From the NCBI GenBank assembly GCA_963663965.2, contig CAXXFK010000010.1, positions 192,001-256,000 on the forward strand: DNA of 64,000 bases. The letters run 5' to 3'. The notes under the pieces are model-generated. The model was given only the letters and a program-made list of their open reading frames with translations. It made no database searches and was not told the DNA's origin. This document shows positions 5,197-57,025 of this stretch, piece by piece. Source of the DNA: Sedimentisphaerales bacterium. GTDB taxonomy: Bacteria; Planctomycetota; Phycisphaerae; Sedimentisphaerales; SM23-30. Numbering within the stretch: the stretch's first letter is position 1; each line of letters opens with the position of its first letter. A program made the position numbers and the translations under genes.

Positions 5197-8100
5197 TTAG
5201 TTGTTCTGTTTAAGCCATTCACGGGCCAATATAGTATAATCCAGCCAGTTCACCACACCATCGCCATCCGGTGGTGGCGCAATATCTGTGACAGGATTGC
5301 TATCGAGCCAGCCTTCGGCCAGTTGCAATAAATCAAGGGTGTCGACTGCACCGTTCTTATCAAAATCACTCCATAATCCAGACCGGGTCATCCACGGGAT
5401 CTGATATAGATTAAACGGTTCACTGTGATCGACGATCATATGAATGGTACCGATACCCGACGAACTCTTGCCCGGTTCAATCAGGTTATAGAAAATGCTG
5501 GAAGACAACAATTCGACGTTATCCGGTGGATTGATCATCAGGAAGTATAAATCATCGATGCCGTCATAGACACATTCATTTTTCAGCTCAACCGAATAGA
5601 CATATTCATATAAGGTCCGCCCAACTCGCCTGGATGACATCAAGTGATATCCGGCCAGATCGGGTTCGCAAACCTCTGGTATGGCCACCAGGAATGTCCC
5701 CAGCAATTGATTGGCCATGGTATTCCCACTGGTATCGGCCACCTGGCCGGCGTTCAGAATAATTTCATAGACGCCATTATCGCTGACATCCCAACTGCCA
5801 TCGGGGCCGGATACCTGATAGGTTACCCAGCGCGGTGTGCCATTTTCATCATTATCCACAGCAACAAACCCGGCGTAAGCAGTAAAATTATCGGGACCGG
5901 CAATGACAATATCCTGACTGTCAAACGTCACGGTATCCAAAGCGACATTGTCCGTATACAATACTCTAAACTGATAGGCCTCTATTTGAGGCGTCGTAAC
6001 GATTTCGGTTTCCAATGCATTAAAGGATGGCGGAGTCAGGTCCGTCGATTCGAAGTACAAGGTATACTGACCGGAACCGCCCTGATCGAACAGATGGATC
6101 ATATGTTCACGAACGGATTTTTCGCCATCACGATGGGTACGGTCGGTCTGCCAGGCATTGAAGTTCATGATCAATTCTTTGCCATCGGAGCGACGAACCC
6201 GGGTCAAGGTATATTGACCGTTATACGGGTCAGCAAATTTGAGATAGGCCCATCCCTGGGGCATTGTCACAACCGCAGTGGCCTGGTACAGCGCCATCTG
6301 TGGATGGACAATGGCATTCAACACCGGGGTTACTGCTTCGACACCGCCATCACTGAAATGGACCTCATCAGGCAGATCCTGGCGTTGATAATCGTTGGGA
6401 TCTTCGTACGGATCATCCGGCCAGATGGTGTTGTTGACCATAAAATCGGGCAGGCCATCGTCTGTGGCGCCGCCACGAACCGTATGGATCAATTCATAAA
6501 TCTGGACATCATCCACCAACGACAAACGCGGATCGTCAATTGGACCCAGGTGCTCATAGGATGCGCTGTACTCAATGAAATGGCCCTGCAGCGTTGAGGT
6601 CATCAGCCAGCGAACCACCTTGCTTTCATTGGGATACAGATCGCCCAGACTCAAATTGAGCGAAGGATTGACCTGCTGGGTTCCAACCTGGGCGCCGATC
6701 AATTTGAAATCGATCAACAAGCCCTTTTCGTTTTCAACAATTTTCGGTTGACTGGAGGTGATCCGGATATTGCGCGCCGAACCATATCCCTTATTGGTCA
6801 TGATCATACCCAGCGTAAACGGTTCTGCCAGTTCGATCTCGTCGGTCCAGGGATCATCGCTGAAGACATCCCGCTGCCAGAAATACTTGAGATACAGACT
6901 CGGATCAGGCTTGACCGTAATGGGCGCCGGTTCCAGCGGCACGACCACGCTGCGGCCATTCTGGGTATAATAGAATACGCCACTAACGGTGTAATCCTGA
7001 TCTTCAATCGGGGCCGCCTCGGGATAAGGCACGATCAGCCAGGACAACGACCCGGACATATCGGGCAGCAGAATCCCTTTGGACTCAAACTCATCCAAAT
7101 TATCATAGACCGGATGATCGATGGCGAAACGATCGGTGGCCAGATTGCCTTCGGCATCATAAACAGTGATATCAACGGAAATATCCGTAACCGGTTCCAC
7201 CTTATCAGGATTATCGATTTCCAGTTTGGCGGTAAAGGCCGTACGCGTAACCGCGACACGCTGTTCAATCTGTAAACGCACCTGGGCACAGACACCATCA
7301 TCTTCAGCCGGTTCAGGCATAATTTCATCATTTAATTGTTGATCGGCTTTTAATTCAATCTTCTTTGGAGTCATTCTCGATATATAAATATATGAAGGCA
7401 GATTATCGACTAACTGGTCGACCAGAGCCGTCTCAATATCATCATGCGCCATAACTAAGAAGTCAGAAAATTCATCTGATACTGGTGATGCTGATTTGGG
7501 ACTCCCATCACACATGTAACCATCACAACCATCATCGATTGGACACACCAGATAATGTCTTTGGTCAGGATCGCCAAGTTGGACGGACGGCCATCCGGAA
7601 ACACAGTCTCCCAAATTGGCTTTTATGCCGGCCATATAATAAATCCCCTTGAAACATCCTCCCTTATCCCAGGCGCCATTTTCATATTTCAAATACAGAT
7701 TAGCACCAGTCTGGGCATTTAAAGCAACTTTGAAGGGTTCACATTCAAAAGCACAAGGCAAATCGCCGCCAATATTAATACTAACATTACCTTCCCCCCC
7801 CAGATAACCATCTAAGCCTATGTTTGCGCTGGCGGTTATATCCGGATTACCAAAATTACAGCCAGAATTGAATTGAGCACCCGCATTAGCATATGGAGTT
7901 ATCTCGGCACCGGCTTTAATTTTTCCGCTGACACTGCCACCGATGGTAACATCCTCAAGGAATTCGCCTTCCCGGCAGGGATTGACAACATTGTGAATCG
8001 TGATAGATGGGGTTGAAAAAGATATTTCTTTTTCGAAGCCAACACCTATGGGGAACTTAATATCAATACCGACATCGGCTTTAATCTCAAAACCAATGCC

Positions 8101-16311: not shown

Positions 16312-19300
16312 TTATTTTAACCACTCAGTATCAATCATCATGATATCGTTCAAATCAACCATGCCATTCATATTTACATCCGCTCCCCCACACCAGTCGG
16401 GCAGATAACAGTCGGCATCAAGCCATTGTGCGGAGACGGCAGCGAAATCGACCAGATCGATCCGGCAATTGCAGTTGACATCAGCTAGTGGTCTGGGCTG
16501 ATCCAACGAACCGCAATAACCGGTGGTGGCTGCCTCGAGATCCAGGGCGATAAAGCCCTGATCGAACGGGGCAACCGTCTCGCCGTCGGGAATCAACTCG
16601 TTTACCAGAGCCATAGCGCCCTCGATTCGGGCATAGACTCTGATATCGTTCAAAATCAAGGTGGAACCGCCAATGATTCGCAGACCATCAGTTGTCTGGT
16701 TGCCGGCCAGATAGAGGGACTCGCGTCCCAGGGAACCGCGGTTGCCGTTATTAACCAGATCGGACAGGCAAACCATAGTCGATTGACTGGTCTGGCCGAC
16801 GACCAATTGTCCGATAGCGAAATTATCGGTTAGGGCTTGCTCCAATCCACCATCCGAACAACCCACCTCCAGATACTGGATATAGTTTTGCGGATCGTTG
16901 GGATCGTCTGTCCAGATATCGCCCCAATCGGTTGGGCCGGCCGGTTGGATATCGCTATCGGCCGATATGGCGTTTTGGCCAGAAGCCAGCGCCAGGAACG
17001 CATCTGCCATGCCGGAAAATTCGCCACCGGCGAGCATGTTCACATAAGTGTTTTCCACATTGCTGACAGCCGGTTCAACTTCCATCGGTCCATCGTCACA
17101 CATCGCCGCCGGCAGCGCCATACTATCTCCGCCGATCGATCGCGGCAATTCGCCGGTCATAATCAGTCTGGCATCCTCCAGATTCACCGACGTTTCAACC
17201 TGATGAGCAAAGGAATAATTACCGGCAATCGCCAATATGGGCATCTCGGAAGAACTAATCGTTGTACTCGAACCTAACAGTAAGTCTTTTTCGACGAAAA
17301 CCAGAGCGTTGTAACCCACCATATTGAACTGGGCATTGCCGGATGAATAAATATTGCCCAATCTTAACCGGCTGTTATTAATATTAAATTTCGTCACACC
17401 ACTGCCGGCGCTGGTTACCTGCTGCAAACTGCCTAAATCGATCTCGGCGTCGCCACTGCAATTGAACTCCACCCAGTCCTGACTGCGCACCGGACCGGTG
17501 ATCCGCGTCACTCCCGAAAAATCAATCTTGCCGCCCGCGCCGGCCGTGATCCGCTGATAACAGGTATCCCGATACGAATTGCCATATACAGTCTCATTGA
17601 ATCCCAAATTCATGCTGGTCAGGGAGGATAAATCCAGCAAACTGCCCGTGCCCGTACTGCCAAATAAATCCCAAACCTTCGTCTCATAAGATCCATCGTC
17701 ATCCGATTGCAACAGACCCGTCGAAGCGTAACTCCCGGCAACCACATCCCCACTAATGACGCCCCACTGCCGCCCGCCATTCACAAACAATTGCGCATTG
17801 TTAATATCCTGCAATCCACCCGTCTCAAACACATTCATCGCATCGATCTTCACCTTGCTGCGACTGCCGGAAAAACTGATCAGTTCAGGCGCCCGGAAAA
17901 TATAAGAGGTATCTTCATTCCCATCCCAGTATATATCCAGATTCGCCCCGGTCAAATCCGGCAACACAACTTCACTATTAGAATCCAGATAAAACGTACT
18001 CGCGCTGATTGTATGCAAGCCGCTGTAAAATTGACTGTTAGCACCCAGCGTTATACTACTGTTCGATAACGAACCCAGTTCCCCCGCATTGAATTGACTG
18101 TCTGCCGCTAACGATAGAGATGCATTGGCAATGGATGACACTGCCGGCATATTCAATATGCTGGAAGGCTGGGTCATCGACACCTGCATCCGATTGACGC
18201 TGGTCAATACCGGAAACTCCCACAGATCGCGGGCGATATTGAACCGCACCGTCCCGCTGCCGGCGCTGGTTACCTGCTGCAAACTGCCTAAATCGATCTC
18301 GGCGTCGCCACTGCAATTGAACTCCACCCAGTCCTGGCTGCGCACCGGACCGGTGATCCGCGTCACTCCCGAAAAATCAATCTTGCCGCCCGCGCCGGCC
18401 GTGATCCGCTGATAACAGGTATCCCGATACGAATTGCCATATACAGTCTCATTGAATCCCAAATTCATACTGGTCAGGGAGGATAAATCCAGCAAACTGC
18501 CTGTGCCCGTGCTGCCAAATAAATCCCAAACCTTCGTCTCATAAGATCCATCGTCATCTGATTGTAGCAGACCCGTCGAAGCGTAACTCTCGGCGACCAC
18601 ATCCCCACTGATGACACCCCACTGCCGCCCGCCATTCACAAACAATTGCGCATTGTTAATATCCTGCAATCCACCCGTCTCAAACACATTCATCGCATCG
18701 ATCTTCACCTTGCTGCGACTGCCGGAAAAACTGATCAGTTCAGGCGCCCGGAAAATATAAGAGGTATCTTCATTCCCATCCCAGTATATATCCAGATTCG
18801 CCTCGGTCAAATCCGGCAATATCACCTCGCTGCTGGAATCCAGATAAAACGTGCTGGCGTCAATGCTATGCAAACCCCCATTAAACCGGCTGTTGGCGCC
18901 CAAGGTCAGACTGCTGCTGGATAACTGGACCAGTTCATCCGCATTCAGAAGGCTGTCAGCCGATAGCGAAATGGATGAATTCGACAGCGTCGATAACACC
19001 GGCATATTCAATATGCTGGAAGGCTGGGTCATCGACACCTGCATCCGATTGACGCTGGTCAATACCGGAAACTCCCACAGATCGCGGGCGATATTGAACC
19101 GCACCGTCCCGCTGCCGGCGCTGGTTACCTGCTGCAAACTGCCTAAATCGATCTCGGCGTCGCCACTACAATTGAACTCCACCCAGTCCTGACTGCGCAC
19201 CGGACCGGTGATCCGCGTCACTCCCGAAAAATCTATCTTGCCGCCCGCGCCGGCCGAGATCCGCTGATAACAGGTATCCCGATACGAATTGCCATATACA

Positions 19301-25000: not shown

Positions 25001-25586
25001 GCGCGGCATGCTGGTCATGTCGGGTAATTTTACTGACGCGCCTGATGATGACCACTATGTTCGCTCGACTGATGACAAAACCGGATTATGGTTTGGTAAT
25101 GTGGATGATCTTTATAACATGGGCATCCCTCGCGGTGTCGGCGGCCCCTGGAAAAATACCCCAGTGAAAGCCAATACCCCTTCATTACCGTATCTGATGA
25201 CCGGCTATGACAATAAAACCGTTGAGCTTTCACACAATCTCAGTGAAGCCGTTACTTTTACCCTGGAAGTAGATTTTCTGGGCGCCAATACCTGGTCGAG
25301 CTATAAGAGTATCAGCGTGCCTGCTGGAAAGATCGTCCGGCATGAATTTCCCGTCGGTTATAATGCCCACTGGATACGAATCAAAACGGATAAAGAATGC
25401 ACAGCTACGGCCTGGTTAATTTATAATCCACTATATACCGGCCAGGATGGCTTGAAAGATTTTATCCATCTGGCCAGGAATTGGCGCTGCAATTTTTGCA
25501 GTCCATTCAATGGCGCAGACCTGAATTTTGATGGACAAGTCAATATGTCCGATTTTGTTCGGTTACTTAATTTCTGGCTGACCTAA
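22065..25586 (+). CDS. Large secreted protein: lectin-like and Calx-beta/Ig-like N-terminus, ~800-aa conserved uncharacterised (beta-propeller-like) region, dockerin-like C-terminus
   Basis: AAGGAG upstream of ATG 22065; signal peptide; 'SGIYPH...ECGIGAVV.WA..LW..TY.PH.P.GS.DK' block; ends DLNFDGQVNMSDFVRLLNFWLT. Confidence 0.75.
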   Translation: MITRNASFGHLLKKRCLLIIILLLFPCQLIQAAFQDDFEAGVFKSDWIAKNIATIVHNPGQGANGSDYYVHITGAEANEETLGGYFVNSSPGNTPNFILSFSFRFTDTNQRQFNVTIGPPNLATNNNTGSDIFINLAYDGSDNRFEAYAGSWKPLTGLPNNLTSNDWHSVAITGRNFGTAGAQYDVAVDGITQTGITYFHGAAAATSLPVGGFNFNDRFGDNPGFDIDNVRVEVPGTILITETNDNTKVKEAGTTSDTFTIAPGSQPEAPVTVDLNVLENPAQINVTPHQLVFTPSDFTAKTITVTAVDDNNTEDYFHNSTLTFTVSSADPDYQNLSIPDLTMIVVDDESTYRYPCFSGIYPHTAVTNTSNECGIGAVVNWANNLWYVTYAPHEPRGSTDKFYQLDDDLMVTIRPESIGGTPANRMIHSESNQLFIGSYIIDEAGNTRTIPLTQMPGRMSANARHLFDPANKIYYYTMEEGLYEVDVHTLEVTTLHPDRNTPGVTDLIPGNHGKGAYSGQGRLVISNNGTGGALAEWDGSGDPGLASSWVIIDQNKYTDITGPGGIYGNTSRDDPLWAIGWDNKSVLLNVCDHNGHWKRFRLPKASYTHDADHGWFTEWPRIRPADPQTRMMDMHGMFYRFPDSFSHDNTAGIQPLSTHLKMVVDWEYRNGRLIWGCNDASQFSNPTVDKALSNLRFTTLAEIADLGRPMGFGGPWIQDSIEANVPSEPIFINGFDHRVIHFTHDKGQPVHFMIEVDKSGTDSWSPLTTVTVEADGYGYYILPTDLSAEWLRLKTDTPIHSATAYLHYSSDQQTIQPKLLASLPQANEKACYSTGLIRGRNVSELTLQFAADMIDADGTIAKTGYYEIGEDMRLIAIDAPDRETWLRNTHPTTQDFTVDDASVIVTYHGEKFRLPKNDPAYDSPGPSGWPRGIRELVTERQMMNIHGTFYELPYSASGGMWKIRPITTHNRKIFDFCSWRGMLVMSGNFTDAPDDDHYVRSTDDKTGLWFGNVDDLYNMGIPRGVGGPWKNTPVKANTPSLPYLMTGYDNKTVELSHNLSEAVTFTLEVDFLGANTWSSYKSISVPAGKIVRHEFPVGYNAHWIRIKTDKECTATAWLIYNPLYTGQDGLKDFIHLARNWRCNFCSPFNGADLNFDGQVNMSDFVRLLNFWLT

Positions 25587-31366: not shown

Positions 31367-33514
31367 TTAAGGATTGGGATAGATCATATTATTAAGAAGC
31401 CATTGATCTATAAAAATATCAAGGTCTTCAACATCGACGATACAATCTCCATTCAGATCATAGGGAGATATTTCCACACAAACGCTTTCACCCGTCAGAT
31501 CGGCATAAAGCTGAGCGATTTCATAGGGGTCAATGGCATAGTTCCAGATCATAATCTCATCAACCAGCCCTTTGAAGCCGCCAGTACCATTGGGCCGCGC
31601 GGCCCCAAAAGTCAGGGGATCGGTATGCACATCAATCGCATTCATGTTTTCTGATGAGGTATCAATCAATATGCCATCAACATAAAGCTTTAAAAACTGG
31701 CCGTCGTATTGCCCGGCCAGCAGATGCCAGGCGCCATCCGTCAGAGTATCCAGACTGGCTACAGTCGCATCGGTGGCTTGTTTTAAGTTAAACTGGCCAA
31801 CATCGGGACAGCGCAGCATCCAACCAATACTGCCTCCATTGTCCTGTTTTGTCACCGCAGTCGCATACGCATTGACTTCATCGGCTTTCACCCAGGCACA
31901 AATCGTTAAGCCCTCTGGATAGAAGTTGAAGTATTCCGCGGCGCCTTCCTGATCGATTCGGACCACTTTACTGTTATTGTCAAACTGAATGGCTTTACCG
32001 GAAATACCTCCATCCAGAATGACGGGTGTTTCTTCCGTTTCAGTTGTTGCGTCAACAAAACGGCCGGTCCAGCCATCCACCGTGTCAACTAAGGTATCTT
32101 CAAAATCCCAGTGTCCCAGCAAGCGCCTGGTCATTAACCGGCCGGATTTTGACACATTCACTACCGAACTAAGACTGTTAGATACCTCACAATAATACAG
32201 CCCTTCATCACCCTGGCTAATATTGCTCAGCGTTATCACTGCCGTAGTTGCCCCAGACACATTTTCGCCATCTATCAGGGGACTGGGGCTCCCTTCTTTA
32301 TACCATCGATAAGTCTCTGCATTTTGCGCGCTTATCGAAAACTGGGCTACTTCACCCGCCTGAACGACAACAAAAGGCTCAGGATCCGATAGCACCAGCG
32401 GATCGGGGGGTTCAGTCGTAAACGACCAGAGAGCGCCTTCATGAAGAATCTCGGGGCCCACAGTATTCGGTTCGTAAACGTCAATCCGCCAGTAGTAGGT
32501 TTTTCCATAGTCCAGTGCCAATGCAGGTGTATAACTGGTATCCATCTTTTTGGAAACAATCTTGGAAGTCATTAGCAAATTGGGATCCGAAGTCAAATAA
32601 ACATCATAGCCGTTTATAGTTTCGATACTGCCTGATTTCCATTCTAATATCGTATTAACTGAAACATTTCGGGTATAAGCCGGCTGTACTGGAAGCACTG
32701 CGGCTGATGCCAGCGTGGCTGTTACAGTGCCGCCTGTTGCGTCATAAGCCATATCTATCCCAAAACCTTGCGGGCTGATAACATTAGCAAATGTGCCGTC
32801 GCCATCGCCATTATTAACACCCCGAAAATTACTGATTCCAGTAAAAAGCGTCCAACTGTCACCAATTGAATATTCACCTGTCAGAATCATTTCTAAAGTT
32901 GAATTGGCGCCAAGTTCGAGTATCAAAGAGCTTCCGGCCACTGTGGCAACGGTTGGACCATCTGTCTCGAATGCTAAGGTCCCGCTGTTATCCACCACAA
33001 ATTCATCCTGAACCGCCGAGGGAACTGCCTGTGGATAGTAATATACCCGGCCATCCAGAATTTCAATAGCCTTACGCCCATCCAGGAATCCTCCATTATA
33101 CACCACGACCTCACCGGTCCCCCCATCGCCAATAAACGTATCAATCCCAGTGCCTGAGACCTGAAGCGTTCCATAAATATCGACCGTTGCCTTGACCCCG
33201 GGATATCGCCCCACGATGACATCGTCACCCGTGTTCAACTGCATATTGGCCGGAATAACAAGCTCTCCGCTATTTTCATTACCCACCATCAGCATAAATG
33301 CCCCCAAAGGGCGATTATAATCGGTTGAGAGGATTGCCAGCCCGGTTACGGTCGCGTCCCCTCCTCCATTAACGCCGGGCAATCCCAGAGACCAGTTATC
33401 TGCCTGATTAAAGTCGTTATCGCCCAATGAATTATTGAATATCGTCTGTGCCGGCGATAGACTGCACAACGTAAGCAATAGAGTGATTCCGGTTATGAAT
33501 ATTCTCATTTTCAT
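31367..33514 (-). CDS. Secreted Ig + LamG protein with dockerin-like C-terminal motif
   Basis: AGGAG before ATG 33514; Ig 'DEGLYYC'; LamG 'FKGLVDEIMIWNYAI'; ends DLNGDCIVDVEDLDIFIDQWL. Confidence 0.85.
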   Translation of the reverse strand: MKMRIFITGITLLLTLCSLSPAQTIFNNSLGDNDFNQADNWSLGLPGVNGGGDATVTGLAILSTDYNRPLGAFMLMVGNENSGELVIPANMQLNTGDDVIVGRYPGVKATVDIYGTLQVSGTGIDTFIGDGGTGEVVVYNGGFLDGRKAIEILDGRVYYYPQAVPSAVQDEFVVDNSGTLAFETDGPTVATVAGSSLILELGANSTLEMILTGEYSIGDSWTLFTGISNFRGVNNGDGDGTFANVISPQGFGIDMAYDATGGTVTATLASAAVLPVQPAYTRNVSVNTILEWKSGSIETINGYDVYLTSDPNLLMTSKIVSKKMDTSYTPALALDYGKTYYWRIDVYEPNTVGPEILHEGALWSFTTEPPDPLVLSDPEPFVVVQAGEVAQFSISAQNAETYRWYKEGSPSPLIDGENVSGATTAVITLSNISQGDEGLYYCEVSNSLSSVVNVSKSGRLMTRRLLGHWDFEDTLVDTVDGWTGRFVDATTETEETPVILDGGISGKAIQFDNNSKVVRIDQEGAAEYFNFYPEGLTICAWVKADEVNAYATAVTKQDNGGSIGWMLRCPDVGQFNLKQATDATVASLDTLTDGAWHLLAGQYDGQFLKLYVDGILIDTSSENMNAIDVHTDPLTFGAARPNGTGGFKGLVDEIMIWNYAIDPYEIAQLYADLTGESVCVEISPYDLNGDCIVDVEDLDIFIDQWLLNNMIYPNP

Positions 33515-33573
33515 AATTGAATTCTCCTGTATATAAATGATTAAGTTCATGTTAATGTCCGGTATGGATTGAT

Positions 33574-35811
33574 TTACATTTGAGGGCCAACGCGATTGGT
33601 TGAAAGCCACGAAGAACTGATAATGGCAAAATCATTGAGATCCACCACACAATCATTATTGAAATCATACGTAGGCCTTTGATAACAAATCGCTGTATGA
33701 CTCATATTGGCGTACATCTGAGCGACTTCAGTCGGGCTCAATGAGAACGTCCAGAGTGAAACTTCATCCAGATAACCCAGTAAAGGAGAATTCAAACCGT
33801 CAGCGGTAGCCGCACCAAATATCAGCGGTTGACTATTGGTTTCAGGCGTTACTTCGGATGGATCACTCATCGCAACCTGGATTCCGTCAGAATACAAAAA
33901 TACAATGCCGGTTAATGGATCGTAAGAACCGGTAATCATATGCCATTGACCATCCATAACGCCGGCCGGAATCCCAAGATCAACTATGGTACGCAGGGTA
34001 GAAATGGCATTATCGGCGTTATGATTGATCAGAAATCCCTGGGACTTATCCAGTTCCTGCTTCGACACCAGACAGCCATATCCATCCTGAGTTGTCTTGA
34101 CCCAGGCATTGACCGTATAGCCTTGTGGGTAGAAATTAAAGAAATCGACGCTGTCGGTTATCTGGATATGCCTGCCATCGCCCTCGAACTGAAAGGCTTT
34201 ACCAGCCAGGGTATTGGGCTCATCAAGCTGAACAAAGGTTGGGATCGGTAATGGATTGAGTTCGTTGGGGTCGTAGTAGATTCCTTCAAATCCGGAAATG
34301 TCATCCATTAAATCATCTTCAAAACTCCAGTGAGCGATCAATCGATGAGTTAACAATCTTGCCGGATTAGATTGAACCGTCACTTCTGAAGTACTGTTGG
34401 CTACGACACAATAGTATTCACCTTCATCCGGCTGTTCCACATTAGCAATCTGCAGCGTATTGGTATCGGCCCCGGAAATGTCGCCCCCATTCTGCAGGGG
34501 AACTGCTTCTCCAACTTTATACCAGGTAAAAATTTCCGCGTTGAAAGTTGCCACACTGAAAGTTGCAGATGATCCACTCGCAACCGTAACCGGTTGTGGG
34601 TGAACATCGATTTTGGGTTCCGGAGGTTCGGTCCTGAAGGTCCAAAGTGGTCCGACAGTCATCACATCCGGATCAGGAGCGTTGGGTTCATAGACATTGA
34701 CAAACCAGGCATAATCCGTTGCGTATTCCAGATCTCCACCCGGAAGCGGATCCACCGACGTGATGAGTTGCTGACTGACAATCTGATTCAGGCCATAATT
34801 GGGCAGCATTTCATTGGGATCTGTGCCAAAATAGACATCGTATTTCGTAGGGGTGACTGTCGGCCCCGGTTCCCAGTTCAGAATCGATGAAATCGGCACA
34901 CGAATCTGGTTATGAGTCGGACTGACCGGTTTAACCAGAATTGAGGTTAATGTAACCACTATCGAGCCATCTGCTCCCCCGTCAGGTGGATTATAGACGA
35001 TATCAAAGGTAGCCCCTTGTTTATTAACCACTTCACTGAATACACCTGTCCCGGTTCCATTAGCGCCGGTAAAACTACCCACTCCATTGAAGAGTGTCCA
35101 ACTATCCCCGATTTGATAGGCGCCACCCAGAATGATTTCAACCTTGGCATCAGCACCGATACTCAAAACATAACCATCGGTATCTCCAGCAACTACTGTG
35201 CCAACTTCCGTTCCATCAGTCACAAATGCAATCGTCCCATCATCCCATACCTCATAAAGATCCTTGGGGGCCGAGGCGACAACCTGCGGATAATACGTCA
35301 CCTTACCGTTGCGAATATAGGTCCCTTTGACACCATTCAACAAACCCCCGTTATAAACATTTACATAACCAACTCCTCCAGCCGTATCGCCTACCAGAAT
35401 GTACGAATTATTACCCCGCGCGTCGAGCATTCCGTAAAGTTCGACATATCCAACTGATCCTGCTCCTACACCAATCTGGATATCCTCTGCCGAATTACCT
35501 TTATAGACTTCGTGGCCAGCATTCACGATTAAAGTACCACTGGTACCATCCTGCCCAATTATAATGTCTATATCCGGCTCACCGCCGCCTCCAAACGAGG
35601 CGGTGGTACTTGCTGTCAGTCCGTTTTTTATAACCAGATCGTATTCATCCTCACTTTGACTCGGATCAGGCAATCCATTAGTCCAGTTGGCTGGATCATT
35701 AAAATCCTGATTACCTAAAGCATCGGTAAACACCGATTGCCCAAAGGACACTTGTAAGGTATTAAATAATAAAATACTTACCAGCCAGACGAATTTTCTC
35801 TTCATGACCAT
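33574..35811 (-). CDS. Secreted Ig + LamG protein with dockerin-like C-terminal motif
   Basis: AGGAG before ATG; 'DEGEYYC'; LamG 'GYLDEVSLW'; ends DFNNDCVVDLNDFAIISSSWL. Confidence 0.85.
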   Translation of the reverse strand: MVMKRKFVWLVSILLFNTLQVSFGQSVFTDALGNQDFNDPANWTNGLPDPSQSEDEYDLVIKNGLTASTTASFGGGGEPDIDIIIGQDGTSGTLIVNAGHEVYKGNSAEDIQIGVGAGSVGYVELYGMLDARGNNSYILVGDTAGGVGYVNVYNGGLLNGVKGTYIRNGKVTYYPQVVASAPKDLYEVWDDGTIAFVTDGTEVGTVVAGDTDGYVLSIGADAKVEIILGGAYQIGDSWTLFNGVGSFTGANGTGTGVFSEVVNKQGATFDIVYNPPDGGADGSIVVTLTSILVKPVSPTHNQIRVPISSILNWEPGPTVTPTKYDVYFGTDPNEMLPNYGLNQIVSQQLITSVDPLPGGDLEYATDYAWFVNVYEPNAPDPDVMTVGPLWTFRTEPPEPKIDVHPQPVTVASGSSATFSVATFNAEIFTWYKVGEAVPLQNGGDISGADTNTLQIANVEQPDEGEYYCVVANSTSEVTVQSNPARLLTHRLIAHWSFEDDLMDDISGFEGIYYDPNELNPLPIPTFVQLDEPNTLAGKAFQFEGDGRHIQITDSVDFFNFYPQGYTVNAWVKTTQDGYGCLVSKQELDKSQGFLINHNADNAISTLRTIVDLGIPAGVMDGQWHMITGSYDPLTGIVFLYSDGIQVAMSDPSEVTPETNSQPLIFGAATADGLNSPLLGYLDEVSLWTFSLSPTEVAQMYANMSHTAICYQRPTYDFNNDCVVDLNDFAIISSSWLSTNRVGPQM

Positions 35812-48877: not shown

Positions 48878-50201
48878 TATAATACTCCCCAAAAACTGGA
48901 CAAAAAAACGGTGATTTTTAGATGGAATTGCCGCCTGAACCGATTGAATAATTCGTATTCAGGAGACAGTTTTAATGAAAGGCAAACGGCGAAATCACAG
49001 TGCCCAGTTTAAGGCGAAAGTGGCCCTGGCCGCCCTGAAGGGCGACAAGACGCTGGCGGAGTTGGCCAAGGTTTTACCAGGTACACCCGACTCAGGTTAC
49101 CCAGTGGAAAAAGGAGCTTTTGAATGCCTTGCCGGAGATCTTTTCTCTGAGGCGCCACCAGGATCAGCGCGAGCAGCAGGCTTTGGTGGATCAGTTATAT
49201 CAGCAGATCGGCCAACTCACGATGGAGTTGGACTGGCTTAAAAAAAAATCCGGGCTTGACACTTGAGCAGAAGCGCCTGGCGATAGAGCCGGGCCATCCC
49301 CGGATTCCGATCGATCGTCAGTGTGAACTGCTGGGCCTGGCCCGCAGTAGTTACTATTATCGTCCCTGCCGGGACACGGAGTACCATGAGAGTCTGATGC
49401 GGCTATTGGATGAACAATACCTCAAAACCCCTTGTTACGGGGTTGACAAGATGACGCAGTGGCTGCGTCGTCAAGGCCACATCGTCAATCCGAAGCGCGT
49501 GCGCCGTTTGCTCCGGCTGATGGGCTTAGAAGCGATTTATCCGCGCGTTTAAGCGGCATTTGAGCCAACCGGACCCGGCCCACAAGATTTATCCCTACCT
49601 GCTTGATGGGGTGGTGGTTACCCGGCCGAACCAGGTCTGGTCGACCGATATTACCTATATCCGCATGTCTCAGGGCTGGGTGTACTTAACGGCGGTCATG
49701 GATTGGTTCAGCCGTTATGTGTTAAGCTGGGAAGTTTCGATCACGCTGGAGGCCGATTTTTGCGTATCGGCGTTGGAGCAGGCGCTGGGCCAGGGCACCC
49801 CGGAGATCTTCAATACGGATCAGGGCAGCCAATTTACATCAGTGGATTTTATCCGGCCCTTGAAAGATGCCGGGATTTTAATCAGCATGGATGGCCGGGG
49901 CCGGGTATTTGACAACATATTTGTCGAACGGTTATGGCGTTCGGTCAAGGTGGAGGAGGTCTATCTGCGAGATTACCAGACGGTGGCCGAGGCGGTGTTA
50001 GGCCTGGGCCGCTATTTTGAGTTTTACAATCATGAACGGCTGCACGAGGCCCTGGGATACCTTACCCCGGCCGAGGTGTTCGCCGGGGCTGTCGCCCCTC
50101 CAGTCGCCCTCCGGGCTCCTTCCGGGGCGACAGCCCCCACCGTGGCGATAACTCCATCTAAGAAAGTCAATATTTTTGTCTAGACAATGGGGAGGGGTAC
50201 A
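48878..50201 (+). mobile_element. IS3-family insertion sequence, 1,324 bp
   Basis: Imperfect TIRs TATAATACTCCCCAAAAACTGGACAAAAA / TGTACCCCTCCCCATTGTCTAGACAAAAA; 3-bp TTT target duplication; the empty site matches the sister repeat at 48631. Confidence 0.95.
48975..50183 (+). CDS. IS3 transposase OrfA/OrfB with A9 slippery site (49240-49248) and two additional +1 indels
   Basis: OrfA HTH 'RRNHSAQFKAKVAL'; OrfB rve DDE 'WSTDITY...TDQGSQF...DNIFVERLWRSVK'; extra bases at ~49072-75 and ~49548-50. Confidence 0.9.
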
Positions 50202-51128
50202 TTTAGCATCTCAGATATTTGTTGTTTCTTGTAGTGAATCTTTTGGCTTTCATACCATAGCCTGTCAATATAATCACAATTCTTTTTATAATAAACTTCA
50301 GCGTCTTTAAAATTACATGATTTTAGTATGTCATGTAATTCTTGCTTTTTATATCGATCTCTTAAATTCTCATACCAAGTTTTTTCGATATAAATTCTGT
50401 TCTCTATATAATAATTCTGCGCATCTTCATATTTATAAGATTCAAGAAGTTTATCCAAGCCTAACTCAATTTTATGTATCTGTTCACGAAGATATTCCTG
50501 TTTTTTATTATTGAAGAAATTTAATCGCGAACTTTCAATATTATCATGTTTGATAATTTCTAAAGGTGTTATTTTTTTATTAAATGTCAGTATACCATTG
50601 TTTTCAAAGTAGATAATCAGAGTATCTTCTTTGATGTCAAAAATTTGCCCAAGACCAAAATCATAATTCAACCTGTGCTTAACGACCATATCAATTTCAT
50701 AAACCATAAATGCTTTTCCAATATTTGATAGATAATTTTAGCAAATTTTTGTTATCAGAACCGTTTCCACAAAGAAATAGTCCCGTAGCCTGGGCACCGG
50801 CAGGATGAGGCAAAACTTGTTTTGCCCATGCTGAGCTAGGCGAAGTCCCGAATCCTCGGGGCTGATCTAAATATTTACCCTTCAATATCATCATTCATAT
50901 TCTTCCGGCCAAAACAACGCTTCGGCCACATCGCCTGCGAGACTCGGTTATGGCTCACCCCTGCAAAAATCAAATGCGCGTTTCAAGTTCATTATTCACA
51001 GCCTTTCACAAACCCCCAATCAACCACATGTGCACAGATTTGCCTCATCCTACGATTTTTGCCCACGCTACGCGACTGCATCTAAAACCTTGCCCTTCAA
51101 ACTATTAATTAGTTCAAAAAAACCATTT

Positions 51129-51821
51129 TCAATCTCCTTTTTTCATTATTGGTTTTCCGGCATTTTTTAATTTAAAGTTTGCTGCATCGATTTTATTTTG
51201 AATTTTTGCAGGTTTCACAAAACACTCATTCAATAAATCTCCCAATATTTCAAGGCACCATTCCGCTTCTCCAGATTCCACATCAAGGATTTCTCCTGTC
51301 GATTGATCTGGAATCGGATGAGCAGCAAAATTACCAAAATTTCTTATAGCATCAACGGCTTTCGATAAATAAACTGGTAATTTTTGGGAAGCTAAAAGTT
51401 CTTCAACCTCATCAGCTAGCGTTCTTTTTACAAAACCAAATTGGTTTCGAATCAGTTTCTGCAAACATCTACGACTCAATGCTGCACTTGATTTGGGGCT
51501 GATAGCTAATACCTTTGATGCCTCAATATAATCGTCCGCATAATCTTTTGGAACCTCATTTGGAGGTATTGGATGATTTCTATATTTTGGATATGCTAGT
51601 ACTAATTCCTGGTCAGCTTTTTGTGCTAAAGCCGAATTGTAACTTATGCTTCTAATGTCACCAAAAAATTTTCTCCCATCTAAACCAATAAGATAAATAA
51701 TTACATTTTTACAACTAGGACAATTTGATGAAAATACTATCCATTTTTTCTGGGGGTCTTCACCAATCAATTTTCCATCTGGGTTATAATGTATCTCAAC
51801 TTCACAATGTGGACATTTCAT
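51129..51821 (-). CDS. DUF4145 (HEPN-like) domain protein with N-terminal Zn ribbon
   Basis: CPHC...CPSC; SAALSRRCLQ...AIRNFGNFAAH. Confidence 0.8.
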   Translation of the reverse strand: MKCPHCEVEIHYNPDGKLIGEDPQKKWIVFSSNCPSCKNVIIYLIGLDGRKFFGDIRSISYNSALAQKADQELVLAYPKYRNHPIPPNEVPKDYADDYIEASKVLAISPKSSAALSRRCLQKLIRNQFGFVKRTLADEVEELLASQKLPVYLSKAVDAIRNFGNFAAHPIPDQSTGEILDVESGEAEWCLEILGDLLNECFVKPAKIQNKIDAANFKLKNAGKPIMKKGD

Positions 51822-51881
51822 CTAATACCTCATTTTCAAATTTCTTTTTTTGGGTTCAATTAATCTCTATTTTCAATAATA

Positions 51882-52259
51882 CTAATCTTCTCGACCGGCA
51901 TCATAAATACACCCCAAATGCAGTATAATCCCTGGAATAATAGCTAGATAACCCATAATGGTAAAAAATAGCCATACTAATCCCATGCCAATTTTACCAC
52001 GATAAATCTGCCCTAATCCGGGTATAAAAAAGCTCAATACCCGTGCAGCTGCAGGATTCCATGATCTATGCATCGGTTCAGGGTCTCCCTTATCGATCAC
52101 AGTGAATATCTGGTCGAGTTTCCGGTCAGTAACAGATTTGCTTGGTACCGGCCTTTTATCATTAACCGCCTTTCCCGATATCGGATGCCCGCAATGCGGA
52201 CAGTTATCCAACACATCGCTGCATTTCCCTTCACAAGCCGCACAATATACAATTCCCAT
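51882..52259 (-). CDS. Zn-ribbon plus TM2-like membrane protein
   Basis: CAAC...CPHCG; 'AARVLSFFIPGLGQIYRG..G.G' TM2 pattern. Confidence 0.75.
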   Translation of the reverse strand: MGIVYCAACEGKCSDVLDNCPHCGHPISGKAVNDKRPVPSKSVTDRKLDQIFTVIDKGDPEPMHRSWNPAAARVLSFFIPGLGQIYRGKIGMGLVWLFFTIMGYLAIIPGIILHLGCIYDAGRED

Positions 52260-52524
52260 CGAAGCACCTCTTTTTTGAAAATAACTTTTCCGTGGTTAAC
52301 TAGTCTGTTCTACCAACTCTGCGGCCGGGTGGCCTCGGCAACCTGTCCCGGGTGCCACCTACAAGCACAGCTTGTGGGTGCATAACGCATCACCCCCCAT
52401 CAGCCAACAACCTCCATCCAAAATAAAAAATCCACAAAAAAATCCTGCCTTTCCAATTTCCAATTTTGCATCCTACATTTTGCCTTTCTTCAGTGTCTTT
52501 CCGCGTTTTTCCGTGGTAAAGGAA

Positions 52525-53135
52525 GGCTGTTATATTTTTATCTCAAATCCCATTTCTCAAATCCTGTCAATGAGCTGAAAGTCCCGATAGCCATCGGGAT
52601 GATCCTGTCTAAAAAGGCCGTTATATTTCTTTTAACCTTCGTGCAGCGCCGCAGGTCGAAAGATCCGCCTCAGGAGTGTCGAAGATCCGCCTCAGGCGGA
52701 ACGCTCCGTGGTTCATCCGGCTGTTATATTCATTGCTTTCTTTTAAACTCATATTCCTTTTCATCCATCTTCTCCCCACTCCGGCTGTTCCTCTGTGCAC
52801 TCGGTGACCTCTGTGGTGCAAATCTTCTTTTTTCATCCTCCCCCCCTTTATGCCCTTCAATAACTTCATGGTAAATCCGGCTGTTATATTTTTATCTCAA
52901 TTTCCATTTCTCAAATCCTGTCAATCCTGTGATCCTGTCTAAAAAGGCCGTTATATTTTTCTTAACCTTCGTGCAGCGCCGCAGGCGCCCTTCGTGTAGC
53001 CGCAGGCGGCTCCGTGGTTCATCCGGCTGTTATATTCATTGCTTTCTTTTAAACTCATATTCCTTTTCATCCATCTTCTCCCCACTCCGGCTGTTCCTCT
53101 GTGCCCTCGGTGACCTCTGTGGTGCAAATCTTCTT
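52525..53135. repeat. Imperfect tandem duplication (52525-52829 and 52879-53135) built from short repeat modules
   Basis: Long identical stretches between the copies; six GGC(T/C)GTTATATT motifs. Confidence 0.9.
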
Positions 53136-53402
53136 CTCCCGCTTCCTTCCTCCAATGACCTGTAAGACCTATTGCTTTTTTGAAACCAATCATGCACCAT
53201 CACAAACACCATCAACTCAAATTTCAGGAGCATCACCCAGCAGACCAGAAACCACAAAACCATTCCCATCCAGCCCACTGGACAACTACTCGATTCCCAT
53301 TTCATAGATCAATACCCCCAGTATACCCATCGCCGGCCAGATTATAAATATTATTTTCACAGAATATCAATCATCATTAACATTCCCCGAATCCCCCCCT
53401 CA

Positions 53403-53458
53403 GTACGGAGTTCACGATTCATCGTGCTTAAAATGTACGGAGTCCACGATTCATCGTG
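53403..53458. repeat. Tandem pair of 24-bp REP-like palindromes
   Basis: GTACGGAGT(T/C)CACGATTCATCGTG at 53403 and 53435; hairpin CACGAT-TC-ATCGTG. Confidence 0.8.
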
Positions 53459-53953
53459 ATCAAAACCTTCTCTCTTCATCAACAAACCCCCATCTGGGCC
53501 GCCCAATTCGCCCCATCACCCCCACCCGATGCGAAACGAACCCAACATCGCCAAAATCCCCCATATCCATAGACATAACAACAATTTACAACCACCTCCA
53601 TTAATCATTCTCCCCCGCACCGCTACCGCCAGGATTTCGCACCGGAGGCGAAAGATCATCCCCACCCATGAGCGCAGCGAATACCAAACCAGAACAAGCC
53701 CAACCGCCCCCCTCCTCCTGTCAACGCCCCCCTGACCTGACGTAAAGACCCAGGCCAAACAAACCCAACCCCCCAAAATCCACCACCCATCTCATTAAAA
53801 ATCAAGACCTTACCGCCGCTTGTTCAGCGCCAGGTTAACAACCCGCCAACCTCCGCCCCCCTGGGACGAACCTTTCAGGCTTTTGCCTTGCGATGGCAGC
53901 TTGATCGCATCTGGATGTGGCCGGGCAGCATTTTTCATGTCGCCGAACCCAAC

Positions 53954-53986
53954 AAAAAAGGCCGCTCCATTGGAATGGCCGGCCTT
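53954..53986 (-). terminator. Intrinsic terminator after the Hcp-like gene
   Basis: Minus strand AAGGCCG-gCCATTccAATGGag-CGGCCTT followed by a T run. Confidence 0.7.
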
Positions 53987-54012
53987 GACTTTCGGGTTGG
54001 AATCTGCGGGTG

Positions 54013-54651
54013 TTACTGGGCGGTCTCCATCCATTCTCCGGCCAGTACGGATAAATCCAGTACATTGACGACCCCGTCGAAGTTCAAGTCGCTGACCCGC
54101 ACGGAATAGCCCGGCACCCATTCCCAGCGGGCCTCGGCGCTGATCCCGCCGTCATTAAAGACTTTTTCAATCGTGGTATAGGCGATCGAGATCTCTTCCC
54201 GTTCCTTATGCTGCATATTTTCGGGGTATTTGTTGTTGAGCATCTCCTGATGAATGGTGGTGATATAAGCGCCGGCAAATCGAATGGTATAATATTGTTC
54301 TTCCAAGCCGGAAGGAGTGGGCTGCCAGAAGCGAATTTCACCATGCAGCCGATCATTGTCGGTGAATGCCCGAAGCAGCAGCGGGGTGGATTTGTCGATT
54401 TCCTTGGTGATCCGGATCGGCATATGCTGACGCTTGCCGGTGGGCATGCCGCTGGCGGCGTCACGCGGCGAGGTGATCAGATGGTCAAACGCAATGACCA
54501 TAATCGAGCCTTCACGGCCTTTCTGGGTGACACTTCCTTCGATTTTACCGGTTTGCTCGCCTTCCAAATAGAGGTAGGCATTCAAGGCGCCCGATGAGGC
54601 GGCGCAAAAGACAGCCAACAACACGATAGCAGTCAATAGTCCGGATTTCAT
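54013..54651 (-). CDS. hcp: Hcp/TssD tube-protein homologue with Sec signal peptide and C-terminal dockerin-like motif
   Basis: ALNAYL.LEG..TG.IEGSVTQKGREG...H.I.SPRD..SG.PTGKRQH.P..ITKEIDKSTPLL...E.QYYTI...A.I...E.ISIAY; leader MKSGLLTAIVLLAVFCAASSG; tail DLNFDGVVNVLDLSVLAGEW. Confidence 0.9.
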   Translation of the reverse strand: MKSGLLTAIVLLAVFCAASSGALNAYLYLEGEQTGKIEGSVTQKGREGSIMVIAFDHLITSPRDAASGMPTGKRQHMPIRITKEIDKSTPLLLRAFTDNDRLHGEIRFWQPTPSGLEEQYYTIRFAGAYITTIHQEMLNNKYPENMQHKEREEISIAYTTIEKVFNDGGISAEARWEWVPGYSVRVSDLNFDGVVNVLDLSVLAGEWMETAQ

Positions 54652-55225
54652 TTTGTTATCCTTTTCTGGTAATGGGCGAACTGTTTTGTTAAACGCTAAG
54701 AACGCTACTCGATAGCCATCCGATTTATCGAATAGAAGGGTAATTCATCATTTCATAGATCGGTTTGAATGTTAGAATACTATACAGAATATTATAGCCG
54801 GCCTGCCGGAGTCAAACAAAGAAAGAACCACAAATCCCGGTGAATCGGGACAAATAAACGCGAATAAGAGCCAGAAGCTTGATTGGGATATGGGTTAAAA
54901 TCAGATCTAACCGCCGATCTAACCGCGAAAAGGCAAAAAACGGGTGTAATTTATTTTAATATAAGAAGTTAGAGCCGCGAAATACACTAAAAGCACAAAA
55001 CAAATATAGAGCATAGGATTTCACGCGAAAGACGCACAGATTCATTTTCTGGTCCATCGCGGCGAATGGGGTTGGGCCGCGCGATCCTGTCTATTGGATC
55101 GATATAGAAATAAAGATTGATTCAGGGGGTTGGTTGCTGGTATTTTATAACCTGTTCGCCCGTTTTGGGGCTGATGGAATGTTGCGAATAACGATGATAA
55201 CTCGATACTGGAAAGGAGTTTATTC

Positions 55226-55921
55226 ATGAAGAAGTATTTGGTCGCGATGCTGGTATTGGCCGGGGTGAGCGTGGGATGGGCCCAGGAGAAGGAACAGGAA
55301 GGGATGTTTGGTGACAGTTTCAGTACGGGACAGTGGTCGGTTGACTTTTATACCGGGTACTTTTCGGAAGCCCACTGGGCGACCATGCCGACTGGTGTGA
55401 CTTATGATCTGACGATTAACGGGATTACTATCGAACGGCCTATCAAGGCGAAAATTGACATGCAGGACAGCTGGATTTTTGGCGGGCACTTCGGCAAGGA
55501 GTGGGAATACCTGGGCTGGGAAGCCGGGCTGGCGGGTGTCTTTGGCGATCTGGATGTGACGACAAATCTGCCGAACGGTTTTGTGGCCAATGATCAGCTT
55601 TATACCTCTGGTGACGCCAGTATGATTTTGACGAATTTTAACCTGATGGTTTATCCGGGCGGGAATAATCTGATGGAAGGCCGGCTACGCCCCTACCTGA
55701 CCGCAGGACCGGGACTGGCGTATCTGATGATTGACCAGAAGTATCTGGATGATGAATTTCTGGTGGATATGAACGCCGGGTTGGGTACGAAGATTTATCC
55801 ATTTGATAATGACGCGGTGTTTATGCGGGTTGATTGGAAATGGCACTATTTATTCAAGGGCGATGAAGTCCGGGATACCTATCATAAGGAACTGACGATT
55901 GGTGTTGGTTTTAATTTTTAG
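55226..55921 (+). CDS. Outer-membrane beta-barrel protein
   Basis: Signal peptide, alternating beta strands, RPYLTAGPG, C-terminal Phe (VGFNF); AAGGAG RBS. Confidence 0.85.
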   Translation: MKKYLVAMLVLAGVSVGWAQEKEQEGMFGDSFSTGQWSVDFYTGYFSEAHWATMPTGVTYDLTINGITIERPIKAKIDMQDSWIFGGHFGKEWEYLGWEAGLAGVFGDLDVTTNLPNGFVANDQLYTSGDASMILTNFNLMVYPGGNNLMEGRLRPYLTAGPGLAYLMIDQKYLDDEFLVDMNAGLGTKIYPFDNDAVFMRVDWKWHYLFKGDEVRDTYHKELTIGVGFNF

Positions 55922-56083
55922 AACCAAAGGCAAGATATCTCACACTAAGCCGCGAAGAAAAATGGCTAAGCCGGCAGTGCCGGAGCTAAAAGAAACCACG
56001 AATAGACACGAATAGACGCGTATAAAACAAGGACATGAAGGATAGTATTTTGGACGCTATCATATTCCATGATGGAGACTTTA

Positions 56084-57025
56084 ATGGCAAGAGCTAAGAT
56101 TTCGATTATCGGCGCCGGCAATGTCGGCTCAACCTGTGCCCACTGGGCCACGCAAAAAGAACTGGGCGATATTGTCCTGCTTGATATTGTCGATGGGATG
56201 CCCCAGGGCAAATCGCTGGACCTGTATGAAGCGACTCCGGTGGGCCGATACGATGTCGGACTGAAAGGGACTTGCGATTATAACGATACGGCCGATAGCG
56301 ATGTGGTGATTATTACTTCGGGACTGGCGCGCAAGCCGGGTATGACCCGCGATGACCTGCTGAAAGCCAATACTGAAATTGTGGCGCAAGTGACAGAAAA
56401 TGTAGTAAAATACAGTCCTGAGGCGGCGCTGATTATCGTCAGCAATCCGCTGGACGCAATGACCTATGTGGCCGGGAAAGTGTCTGGGTTGCCCAAAAAT
56501 AAAGTGATGGGCATGGCCGGTGTGCTGGATTCGGCGCGGTACCGGGCGTTTATCGCCGAGGCGCTGAATGTTTCGGTTGCGGATATTTCGGCGATGCTGC
56601 TGGGCGGGCATGGAGATGATATGGTGCCGCTGCCGCGGTATACCACAATCGCGGGGATACCGCTGACGGAGTGGCTGGACAGTGCGACGATCGAAGCGAT
56701 TGTGGATCGCACCCGAAAAGGCGGACTCGAGATTGTGAATCTGCTTAAAACGGCTTCGGCTTATTTCGCGCCGTCCCTTTCCGCGGTGGATATGGCGGAG
56801 TCGATTTTGAAAGATAAACGGCGGGTGATGCCCTGCTGCGCCTGGTGCGATGGTGAATATAATGCCGGCGGCTGCTTTGTGGGTGTGCCGGTGGTGCTGG
56901 GCAGTCATGGGGTTGAAAAGGTGGTGGAACTGCAATTGAATGAGGCCGAAAAGGCATTGTTTACCGAATCGCTTAACCATGTCAAGAAGCTGGTCGCCAC
57001 GGTGGATCAGTTAATGCAATCCTGA
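56084..57025 (+). CDS. mdh: Malate dehydrogenase (LDH-like)
   Basis: IIGAGNVG, ARKPGMTRDDLL, VSNPLD, AGVLDSAR, GGHGD. Confidence 0.95.
   Translation: MARAKISIIGAGNVGSTCAHWATQKELGDIVLLDIVDGMPQGKSLDLYEATPVGRYDVGLKGTCDYNDTADSDVVIITSGLARKPGMTRDDLLKANTEIVAQVTENVVKYSPEAALIIVSNPLDAMTYVAGKVSGLPKNKVMGMAGVLDSARYRAFIAEALNVSVADISAMLLGGHGDDMVPLPRYTTIAGIPLTEWLDSATIEAIVDRTRKGGLEIVNLLKTASAYFAPSLSAVDMAESILKDKRRVMPCCAWCDGEYNAGGCFVGVPVVLGSHGVEKVVELQLNEAEKALFTESLNHVKKLVATVDQLMQS

Follow-up and report, generated by a model that had tools for sequence, protein, structure and literature searches.

A putatively exported Hcp protein with a dockerin-like C-terminal tag in a Sedimentisphaerales bacterium without a type VI secretion system

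Introduction

What does an Hcp protein do in a bacterium that has no type VI secretion system (T6SS) in which to place it? The question is raised by a gene on a 64,000-nt stretch of DNA (hereafter the window; positions 192,001 to 256,000 of contig CAXXFK010000010.1, assembly GCA_963663965.2) from a Sedimentisphaerales bacterium of the phylum Planctomycetota. The gene (positions 54013..54651 of the window, minus strand, stop codon at 54013-54015), delimited from the list of open reading frames (ORFs) and the sequence, encodes a protein of 212 aa in which an N-terminal leader is followed by an Hcp/TssD domain and a short C-terminal tag. Hcp counts as a hallmark of the T6SS, and proteins of this kind are routinely annotated as 'T6SS effector'. 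A preliminary description of the window had read the gene as an orphan Hcp rebuilt as a Sec-exported, dockerin-tagged protein, and the analysis reported here follows up that description. An Hcp that carries an export signal and a shared tag in a T6SS-less bacterium apparently has a second job outside the cytoplasm.

In the explanation that we favour, the newly made protein would carry a cleavable Sec signal peptide and cross the inner membrane unfolded, and signal peptidase I (SPase I) would cut at G21|A22 and so restore the native Hcp N-terminus, as sequence rules and family conservation suggest. It would then fold and form Hcp-type rings outside the cytoplasm by lateral strand pairing, as structure prediction indicates. 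Because the tag is shared and strictly C-terminal, we propose as a last step that this repeat would hold the protein at, or sort it to, an envelope or surface partner common to about 90 other exported proteins. Taken as a whole, and through Sec export, assembly and retention or sorting by the tag, the exported Hcp is probably a multivalent ring with the task of binding or organising components of the envelope or surface. We infer this function from the features described below; a multivalent ring is its most likely role, and neither a free enzyme nor a degenerate relic is likely.

An Hcp domain in a genome without a T6SS

The Hcp domain spans residues 22-178 (54118..54588, minus strand). The Pfam profile T6SS_HCP (PF05638) matches residues 26-162 with an E-value of 5.8e-27 and 95 bits (cut-off 23.5), and the NCBIfam profile TIGR03344 matches residues 22-177, over positions 2-165 of its 167, with an E-value of 2.9e-40 and 137.9 bits (cut-off 58.9). 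The best sequence relatives of solved structure are Hcp chains (5urw, E 1.8e-24, then 3he1 and 4hkh). An AlphaFold2 (AF2) model based on 44 relatives has the Hcp beta core at a mean predicted local distance difference test score (pLDDT) of 87.7, and the top Foldseek matches against the PDB are all Hcp (6a2v, with E 2.9e-17 and a TM-score of 0.85 on the target, 4hkh and 5mxn); the ESM Atlas yielded no usable match. The full-length Hcp/TssD domain claimed in the preliminary description is therefore confirmed by two profiles above their curated cut-offs and by the fold.

The same description had stated that no vgrG, PAAR, sheath or baseplate gene lies within the 64 kb. A Pfam scan of 34 other ORFs of at least 150 aa, chosen after leaving out nine shadow ORFs that overlap longer ones, agrees with this statement, as no T6SS gene was found among them. 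The absence extends to the whole genome (7.24 Mb in 42 contigs, 94.56% complete, 5.43% contamination), in which profile searches for seven families (TssB, TssC, TssF, TssK, VgrG/Phage_GPD, PAAR and phage sheath) gave no match in any of the seven, every one of these T6SS and contractile-tail searches having scored in one or more of 14 control genomes. Out of 401 genomes sampled evenly from the class to which the bacterium belongs, six match the profile of the family end to end, namely the genome of the window and five others of the same order, and none of these six, one of which is a single 4.25-Mb contig, has a TssC match. Across the class, TssC was found in 70 of the 401 genomes and, within the order, in one of 64, at about 450 bp from an Hcp gene; those families of the class that bear a T6SS have, next to TssC, Hcp genes for leaderless, tail-less proteins of 161 aa. 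T6SS tube components are leaderless cytoplasmic proteins that form polymers within the sheath and co-occur with the core genes of the system (TssB/C, TssE-K and VgrG); the window protein has a leader and occurs in genomes without those genes, and its homologues of the same build lie outside T6SS loci. The product of this gene very probably does not work in a T6SS.

A C-terminal tag shared with other exported proteins

The tag (D188-W207; 54031..54090, minus strand) is a single dockerin-like or EF-hand-like calcium-loop repeat with a helix, as delimited by the alignment and by an AF2 helix at residues 197-211. The loop follows the pattern D-x-N-x-D-G-x-V-x-x-x-D, its positions 1, 3, 5, 6, 8 and 12 being D188, N190, D192, G193, V195 and D199. 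D188, D192, V195 and D199 are invariant among the 44 aligned relatives, and G193, A204 and W207 nearly so. The Pfam profile Dockerin_1 (PF00404) reaches the tag with an E-value of 0.046 and 14.3 bits, under its cut-off of 22.9, and covers positions 3-18 of 57. Type I dockerins are defined by two tandem repeats of about 22 residues, of which the tag has one. The dockerin tag of the preliminary description thus stands as regards a C-terminal calcium-loop motif shared with other proteins and fails as regards a dockerin proper, in view of the single repeat, the sub-cut-off score and the lack of a Cohesin match in the genome; the tag is best described as dockerin-like and not as a bona fide dockerin.

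The claim that seven other proteins of the window share the motif is correct: a motif scan retrieves it in six ORFs, and a seventh, ORF 1661-5161, matches Dockerin_1 (E 1.7e-4) with its repeat within the last 40 residues, so that in all seven the repeat lies at or near the C-terminus. Among them, it was located by motif scan and C-terminal position in ORF 5197-12633 (5320..5367, minus strand, the first of two C-terminal repeats), ORF 22026-25586 (25518..25565, plus strand), ORF 31367-33610 (31412..31459, minus strand) and ORF 33574-35811 (33619..33666, minus strand), in all four with the agreement of a tail hidden Markov model (HMM), and by motif scan and C-terminal sequence in ORF 16312-20751 (16333..16380, minus strand). 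This HMM (E <= 0.01), stricter than the motif scan, recovers four of the seven.

Of the ORFs of 80 aa or more in the whole genome, the tail HMM matched 112, and 105 of these carry a single repeat. The match lies within 15 aa of the C-terminus in 73 of the 112 and within 40 aa in 90, and 76 of these 90 C-terminally tagged ORFs have an N-terminal hydrophobic stretch, a crude measure of export; among background ORFs of 200 aa or more the figure is 2210 of 4664. The cargo was sampled by a seeded random draw of 20 from the 68 tagged ORFs that measure 200-1000 aa and lie on contigs other than that of the window. The lectin-like Laminin_G_3 (LamG) domain was found in eight of the 20 (above cut-off in seven), mostly together with Ig domains; the remainder comprised NHL (one), DUF7901 (two), GLUG (one), a weak dockerin match alone (two) and no family (six). 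Such a terminal tag on some 90 exported, mostly lectin-like proteins points to a general end-label of exported proteins, and the tag is, judging from this distribution, a general exoprotein label of the organism.

A label of this kind need not be a docking module. It could instead act as a sorting signal towards the outer membrane or a surface layer, with a logic like that of the C-terminal domains of the type IX secretion system (T9SS) or of PEP-CTERM, and the ring would then be released in soluble form. The nearly constant terminal position of the tag, its presence on unrelated exported cargo and the lack of a cohesin-type receptor all speak for such a signal, given that the Pfam Cohesin profile had no match in the genome of the window and matched in one of the five other carrier genomes. 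On the other hand, the repeat holds a complete calcium loop of the EF-hand/dockerin type, which elsewhere is a binding module; no dedicated sorting machinery was identified, and in 22 of the 112 ORFs the distance of the repeat from the end exceeds 40 aa. We thus regard a pure sorting signal as unlikely and prefer a tag that holds the ring at, or directs it to, a partner. A divergent partner could be encoded in this genome.

The leader and its cleavage

Residues 1-21 (54589..54651, minus strand) have the make-up of a Sec/SPase I signal peptide, as assigned from sequence rules and family statistics: a positive n-region (K2), a hydrophobic h-region (L5-A18; the AF2 model has a helix at residues 2-15) and small residues at -3 (S19) and -1 (G21) of the predicted cleavage site G21|A22. 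Among 81 relatives of the same build, position -1 is G or A in 72, position -3 is S in 60 and position +1 is A in 76; K or R occurs within the first eight residues in 80, and the median leader is 22 aa long. Within the alignment of 44 relatives the leader is conserved in character and not in sequence, as expected of a signal peptide. Leaderless relatives of 162 aa begin M-ALNAY, which matches the window protein from residue 22 (G21|ALNAY) with no linker in between, and cleavage at G21|A22 would hence restore the native Hcp N-terminus. Both the signal peptide and the native end exposed by its removal, as put forward in the preliminary description, are thus upheld by the conserved leader and by the register of the leaderless proteins.

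That description had also allowed for a true start inside the Hcp domain. The codon of L23, TTG, is a possible start in the window gene alone: in all of 11 homologous genes the corresponding codon is not a start, and two of these genes lack any start-like codon from M1 to the Hcp domain. Translation from L23 was rejected on these grounds; a leaderless product is unlikely. A lipoprotein was likewise rejected, as the leader has no lipobox (F precedes C16) and its cysteine, C16, is not conserved.

The leader might also persist as an uncleaved signal anchor, which would tether the Hcp to the inner membrane, facing the periplasm, with the tag binding something there. Cleavage is predicted and, in the same T6SS-less order, some Hcp proteins clearly have a membrane anchor at the N-terminus and a linker, which argues that a membrane-tethered periplasmic Hcp exists as a design. 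The conservation at -1, -3 and +1, however, is that of a processed leader, which moreover stops exactly where leaderless Hcp begins and leaves no room for a linker; residues 22-25 lie in the predicted subunit interface, where an attached helix would be expected to crowd. An anchor is accordingly quite improbable for the tagged Hcp, for which we retain cleavage and release into the extracytoplasmic space as the preferred course.

The anchored Hcp proteins form a second exported type, present in the genome of the window itself (L002:1258-1950, plus strand, identical to G000:C20:132314-133006) and in the same order (loci L038-L041, L043, L045 and L048). In these proteins the membrane anchor is N-terminal and is followed by a conserved, proline-rich motif with T-M-K/R-T-L-D-E-I-Y at its end, then by a linker and the Hcp domain; the motif occurs in only one ORF of the window's genome. 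The gene that comes after the Hcp gene at L002 and L045 codes for a secreted protein that has repeats of the W-x-N-F type (a weak BNR match in L002). Other exports also occur: two Hcp proteins (P0214 and P0215) have Tat-like, twin-arginine leaders, and P0182 combines a Sec leader with a C-terminal hydrophobic segment that ends in an arginine run and resembles a membrane-sorting tail.

Self-association and a cysteine pair

Residues 22-212 were modelled as a complex of three copies, and the prediction scored 0.75 where the best of three controls scored 0.11; this mark was reached in a benchmark by 20 of 30 proteins whose solved structure is a pair of one chain and by one of 23 proteins solved as single chains. 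The three-copy runs agree in at least 60% of their contacts, with a partner pLDDT of at least 78. The predicted contacts run head to tail, the strand 52-61 and the loop 63-74 forming one face and residues 129-150 and 176-180 the other, and the N-terminal strand (residues 22-25) is part of the predicted interface. As solved Hcp hexamers exist, this pass may reflect mere likeness to them. The protein may form an Hcp-type ring by lateral strand pairing, as far as such models predict; the hexavalent hub or nanotube of the preliminary description would be a conjecture beyond that.

A short linker (residues 179-186; 54094..54117, minus strand), delimited by the alignment and of lower pLDDT, joins the domain to the tag. 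It contains column 180, which together with column 68, in the hairpin loop, is the site of a cysteine pair: both columns hold cysteine in 21 of the 81 tagged relatives, neither does in 60, and a single one in none, and the loop cysteine is absent from all 81 leaderless Hcps. One predicted face of the subunit includes residues 65-70 and the opposite one residues 176, 178 and 180, so that an inter-subunit disulfide is possible. At the level of the family, the co-occurrence of the two cysteines, as would be expected of a disulfide, hints at an oxidising compartment outside the cytoplasm.

Relatives, origin and constraint

A word-index search returned 1520 proteins at E <= 0.001, and an exhaustive search of cluster representatives 3644 at the same threshold. 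Within the best 120 of the 1520, roughly the first 60 have a length near 212 aa, are 50-61% identical to the window protein over their full length and are named by their sources as metagenome-assembled genomes (MAGs) of Sedimentisphaerales, Phycisphaerae or Planctomycetota. The ends of 261 retrieved proteins of up to 300 aa were classified, and since this set is biased towards the query its counts are not natural frequencies: 81 have leader, Hcp and tag, 81 are leaderless and tail-less, 35 have a leader only, 21 a membrane anchor and linker, nine a leader and another C-terminal extension, 22 are fragments and 12 are of other build. The source names of the 81 proteins with the full build point to Sedimentisphaerales, Phycisphaerae and Planctomycetota. 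The fusion of signal peptide, Hcp and dockerin-like tag is accordingly found well beyond this genome, and the 'rebuilt orphan' of the preliminary description undersells what is one member of an established family within a wider range of exported Hcp forms. Among 80 loci from species-representative genomes, nine have the full build, all titled Planctomycetota and four of them 'uncultured Pirellulales' by submitter label, and the leader-only form occurs at two loci of Myxococcota.

Trees of the Hcp domain leave 76 of 118 inner branches open and require eight or nine changes for the tagged forms. A single origin of the latter was considered without a decision in its favour, as holding them together was not rejected in spite of those changes (approximately unbiased test, p-AU 0.235; 58 of 121 rows, LG+G4), and a tree that separates the leaderless and the exported forms gave a borderline p-AU of 0.053. 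On trees so poorly resolved, export may have arisen once or several times.

Constraint on the domain itself seems little changed. After thinning to 80% identity, the consensus of 56 tagged sequences agrees with that of 50 leaderless ones at 133 of 157 positions, and the column entropies of the two sets correlate with a Spearman rho of 0.76 (means of 1.56 and 1.72 bits), although the leaderless set was gathered by likeness to the query and the shared constraint therefore looks inflated. There is no sign of relaxed selection on the Hcp domain, and a constraint like that of T6SS Hcp suggests that the ring surfaces still matter.

In T6SS, Hcp serves as receptor and chaperone for effectors. A T6SS-less prey might thus export a faithful copy as a decoy or sponge, capturing the lumen-binding effectors that the T6SS of its neighbours deliver. 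The constraint just described, in carriers that have no T6SS, is consistent with such a copy, as is the closeness of the domain to leaderless Hcps of other phyla: within the best 120 of the 1520 matches, the nearest leaderless relatives, of 162 aa, are 61-66% identical over the domain and named by their sources as Proteobacteria and Deltaproteobacteria; among the loci compared, a Desulfocapsaceae record has 65% identity, and one leaderless relative (L077, in a MAG labelled Proteobacteria) sits within a TssC-Hcp-TssE-TssF locus. Nevertheless, a surface tag shared with so many proteins fits a general exoproteome better than a defence locus, and no immunity-like or defence genes adjoin the tagged gene in 13 loci, for which reasons we consider a decoy highly unlikely and a ring that binds or arranges parts of the envelope or surface the better reading. 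Least credible of all, to the point of being negligible, is a part in a T6SS or other contractile injection system missed through incomplete assembly, which the draft state of the genome might invite and which conflicts with the absence of all seven families there and of TssC from the six carriers (one of them in a single contig), with a Sec leader incompatible with assembly inside a cytoplasmic sheath, and with a monocistronic gene that has no conserved neighbours.

Some other relatives deserve mention. Seven leaderless genes for M-ALNAY Hcp proteins (L081, L085, L088, L093, L104, L111 and L119; Bacteroidota, Chlorobi and a Cyanobium) are flanked by unrelated genes, and over the 3 kb searched on either side no T6SS gene occurs; at L093 a phage-lysozyme gene follows. 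Giant proteins with up to 25 matches were examined as possible tandem Hcp domains and rejected as such, only a hairpin-like Hcp fragment of about 33 residues being repeated in them. Five secreted proteins of 430-3375 aa (P0121, P0138, P0158, P0268 and P0276) carry up to about 20 tandem modules of this kind, which are 66-79% identical to the Hcp hairpin and strand (residues ~53-86 of the window protein) and in some proteins interleave with FG-GAP-like repeats; one of the proteins has a cohesin domain.

The gene and its surroundings

The gene is an intact ORF with an ATG start, preceded at 8 nt by the ribosome-binding-site-like AGGA (54659..54662, minus strand), and similar purine-rich motifs stand upstream of the ATG of the leader in most of the 11 homologous genes. 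A terminator-like hairpin followed by a U-run (53951..53986, minus strand) begins 26 nt past the stop, with a folding energy of -29 kcal/mol and a z of -2.63 against 200 shuffles; a simple consensus terminator scan did not list it. The gene is monocistronic, in keeping with the earlier statement that it stands alone with its own terminator, and its upstream neighbour is transcribed divergently. Its GC content (53.5%) and GC at third codon positions (GC3, 0.66) are similar to those of the adjacent mdh and NAD synthase genes; recent horizontal transfer was rejected on this match with housekeeping neighbours, and by composition the gene is a resident one. Two promoter-like sites were found near it, with 2.2 expected from shuffles, and Rfam and tRNA scans of 48000-56500 gave no match.

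The divergent neighbour (55226-55921, plus strand) encodes a protein of 231 aa that starts like a signal peptide and, in the manner of outer-membrane barrels, ends in an aromatic residue; no Pfam family matches it, and it does not recur beside tagged Hcp at other loci. A conserved partner gene was sought by comparing 13 full-build loci and rejected, as no neighbour recurs apart from the synteny common to the closely related L034 and L069. Downstream of the Hcp gene lies a 2.2-kb stretch without long ORFs and with several direct-repeat families (52288-53465), which has no Rfam or tRNA match and includes a 127-nt direct repeat in two copies, 99% identical (52703-52829 and 53009-53135); the stretch adjoins an integrase-core fragment (49560-50183). 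Further off, a small protein (20809-21330, minus strand) that matches PEP-CTERM weakly (19.5 bits, cut-off 20.7) lies among the giant tagged proteins, and PEP-CTERM-like ends are also found near tagged Hcp in L034 and L036. The argininosuccinate synthase gene (43054-44324, minus strand) is split into overlapping ORFs for its N-terminal (43665-44324) and C-terminal (43054-43860) domains, which suggests a frameshift or an assembly error.

Discussion

Several points weigh against a multivalent, tagged ring. The cleavage and the extracytoplasmic location are deduced from sequence features, and the inflated likeness of the leaderless set flatters the constraint on the domain. In the predicted complex, the tail (residues 183-212) lies outside every interface, and the three-copy model is thus silent on a hub. 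The sequences with the cysteine pair sit in few clades and do not represent 21 independent events, and the window protein itself is without the pair. The genome is a draft with some contamination, the Pfam Cohesin profile had no match in it and, with no recurrent neighbour in 13 loci, nothing in the gene's surroundings points to a function. More tentatively, we suggest that exported Hcp might constitute a separate, T6SS-free functional class, with Sec, Tat-like and anchor solutions to export, and that in Planctomycetota of the Sedimentisphaerales type the tagged ring might serve as a six-fold hub of the calcium-loop-tagged exoproteome, stapled by inter-subunit disulfides in one subgroup, that nucleates or organises a 'planctosome'-like surface assembly of lectin-like proteins; this wider proposal is possible, though we would call it doubtful.

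The family has practical consequences for annotation, for it is a conserved group of exported Hcp proteins, apparently under unchanged constraint and in genomes without the machine, to which the label 'T6SS effector' can be misleading. It also raises the question of what an Hcp ring does outside the cytoplasm. Since the tag ends some 90 exported ORFs, a small and easily purified Hcp fusion would be a convenient probe for the tag receptor, and exported rings with six addressable tails would be natural candidates for engineered surface display.

Comparison with known systems

The full-text literature searched, subscription journals lying outside its coverage, yielded no paper on an Hcp that bears either a signal peptide or a tag of the dockerin-like kind. 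The closest known relative is canonical Hcp/TssD (PF05638, TIGR03344; 5urw, 4hkh, 3he1, 6a2v and 5mxn), with which the window protein shares the domain, the fold, the putatively processed N-terminus, the pattern of conserved positions and the predicted lateral strand pairing. It differs in the addition of a Sec leader and a C-terminal tag, and in being encoded by a solitary gene in genomes without sheath, baseplate or spike.

The tag finds its nearest counterpart in the dockerin-cohesin modules of non-cellulosomal systems. A hypothetical cohesin-dockerin 'planctosome' has been proposed for freshwater Phycisphaerae (PMC6461901), and a scaffoldin with two cohesins has been reported in one Sedimentisphaerales isolate (PMC11557425). 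The likeness lies in an EF-hand-like loop and helix that end exported Planctomycetota proteins and for which docking has been proposed; the tag of the window protein differs in its single, sub-cut-off repeat and in a genomic context with Cohesin matches in one of the five other carriers and none in its own genome.

As a combination of domains, the protein can be set beside the 'evolved' Hcp-toxin fusions, which are leaderless and T6SS-dependent and bear C-terminal toxin domains. Toxins fused to N-terminal Hcp1 domains have been described (PMC3482391). In both cases the Hcp domain appears as the carrier of a C-terminal addition. The window protein, in contrast, has a leader and no T6SS, and bears in place of a toxin a 20-residue repeat that would serve for binding or sorting.

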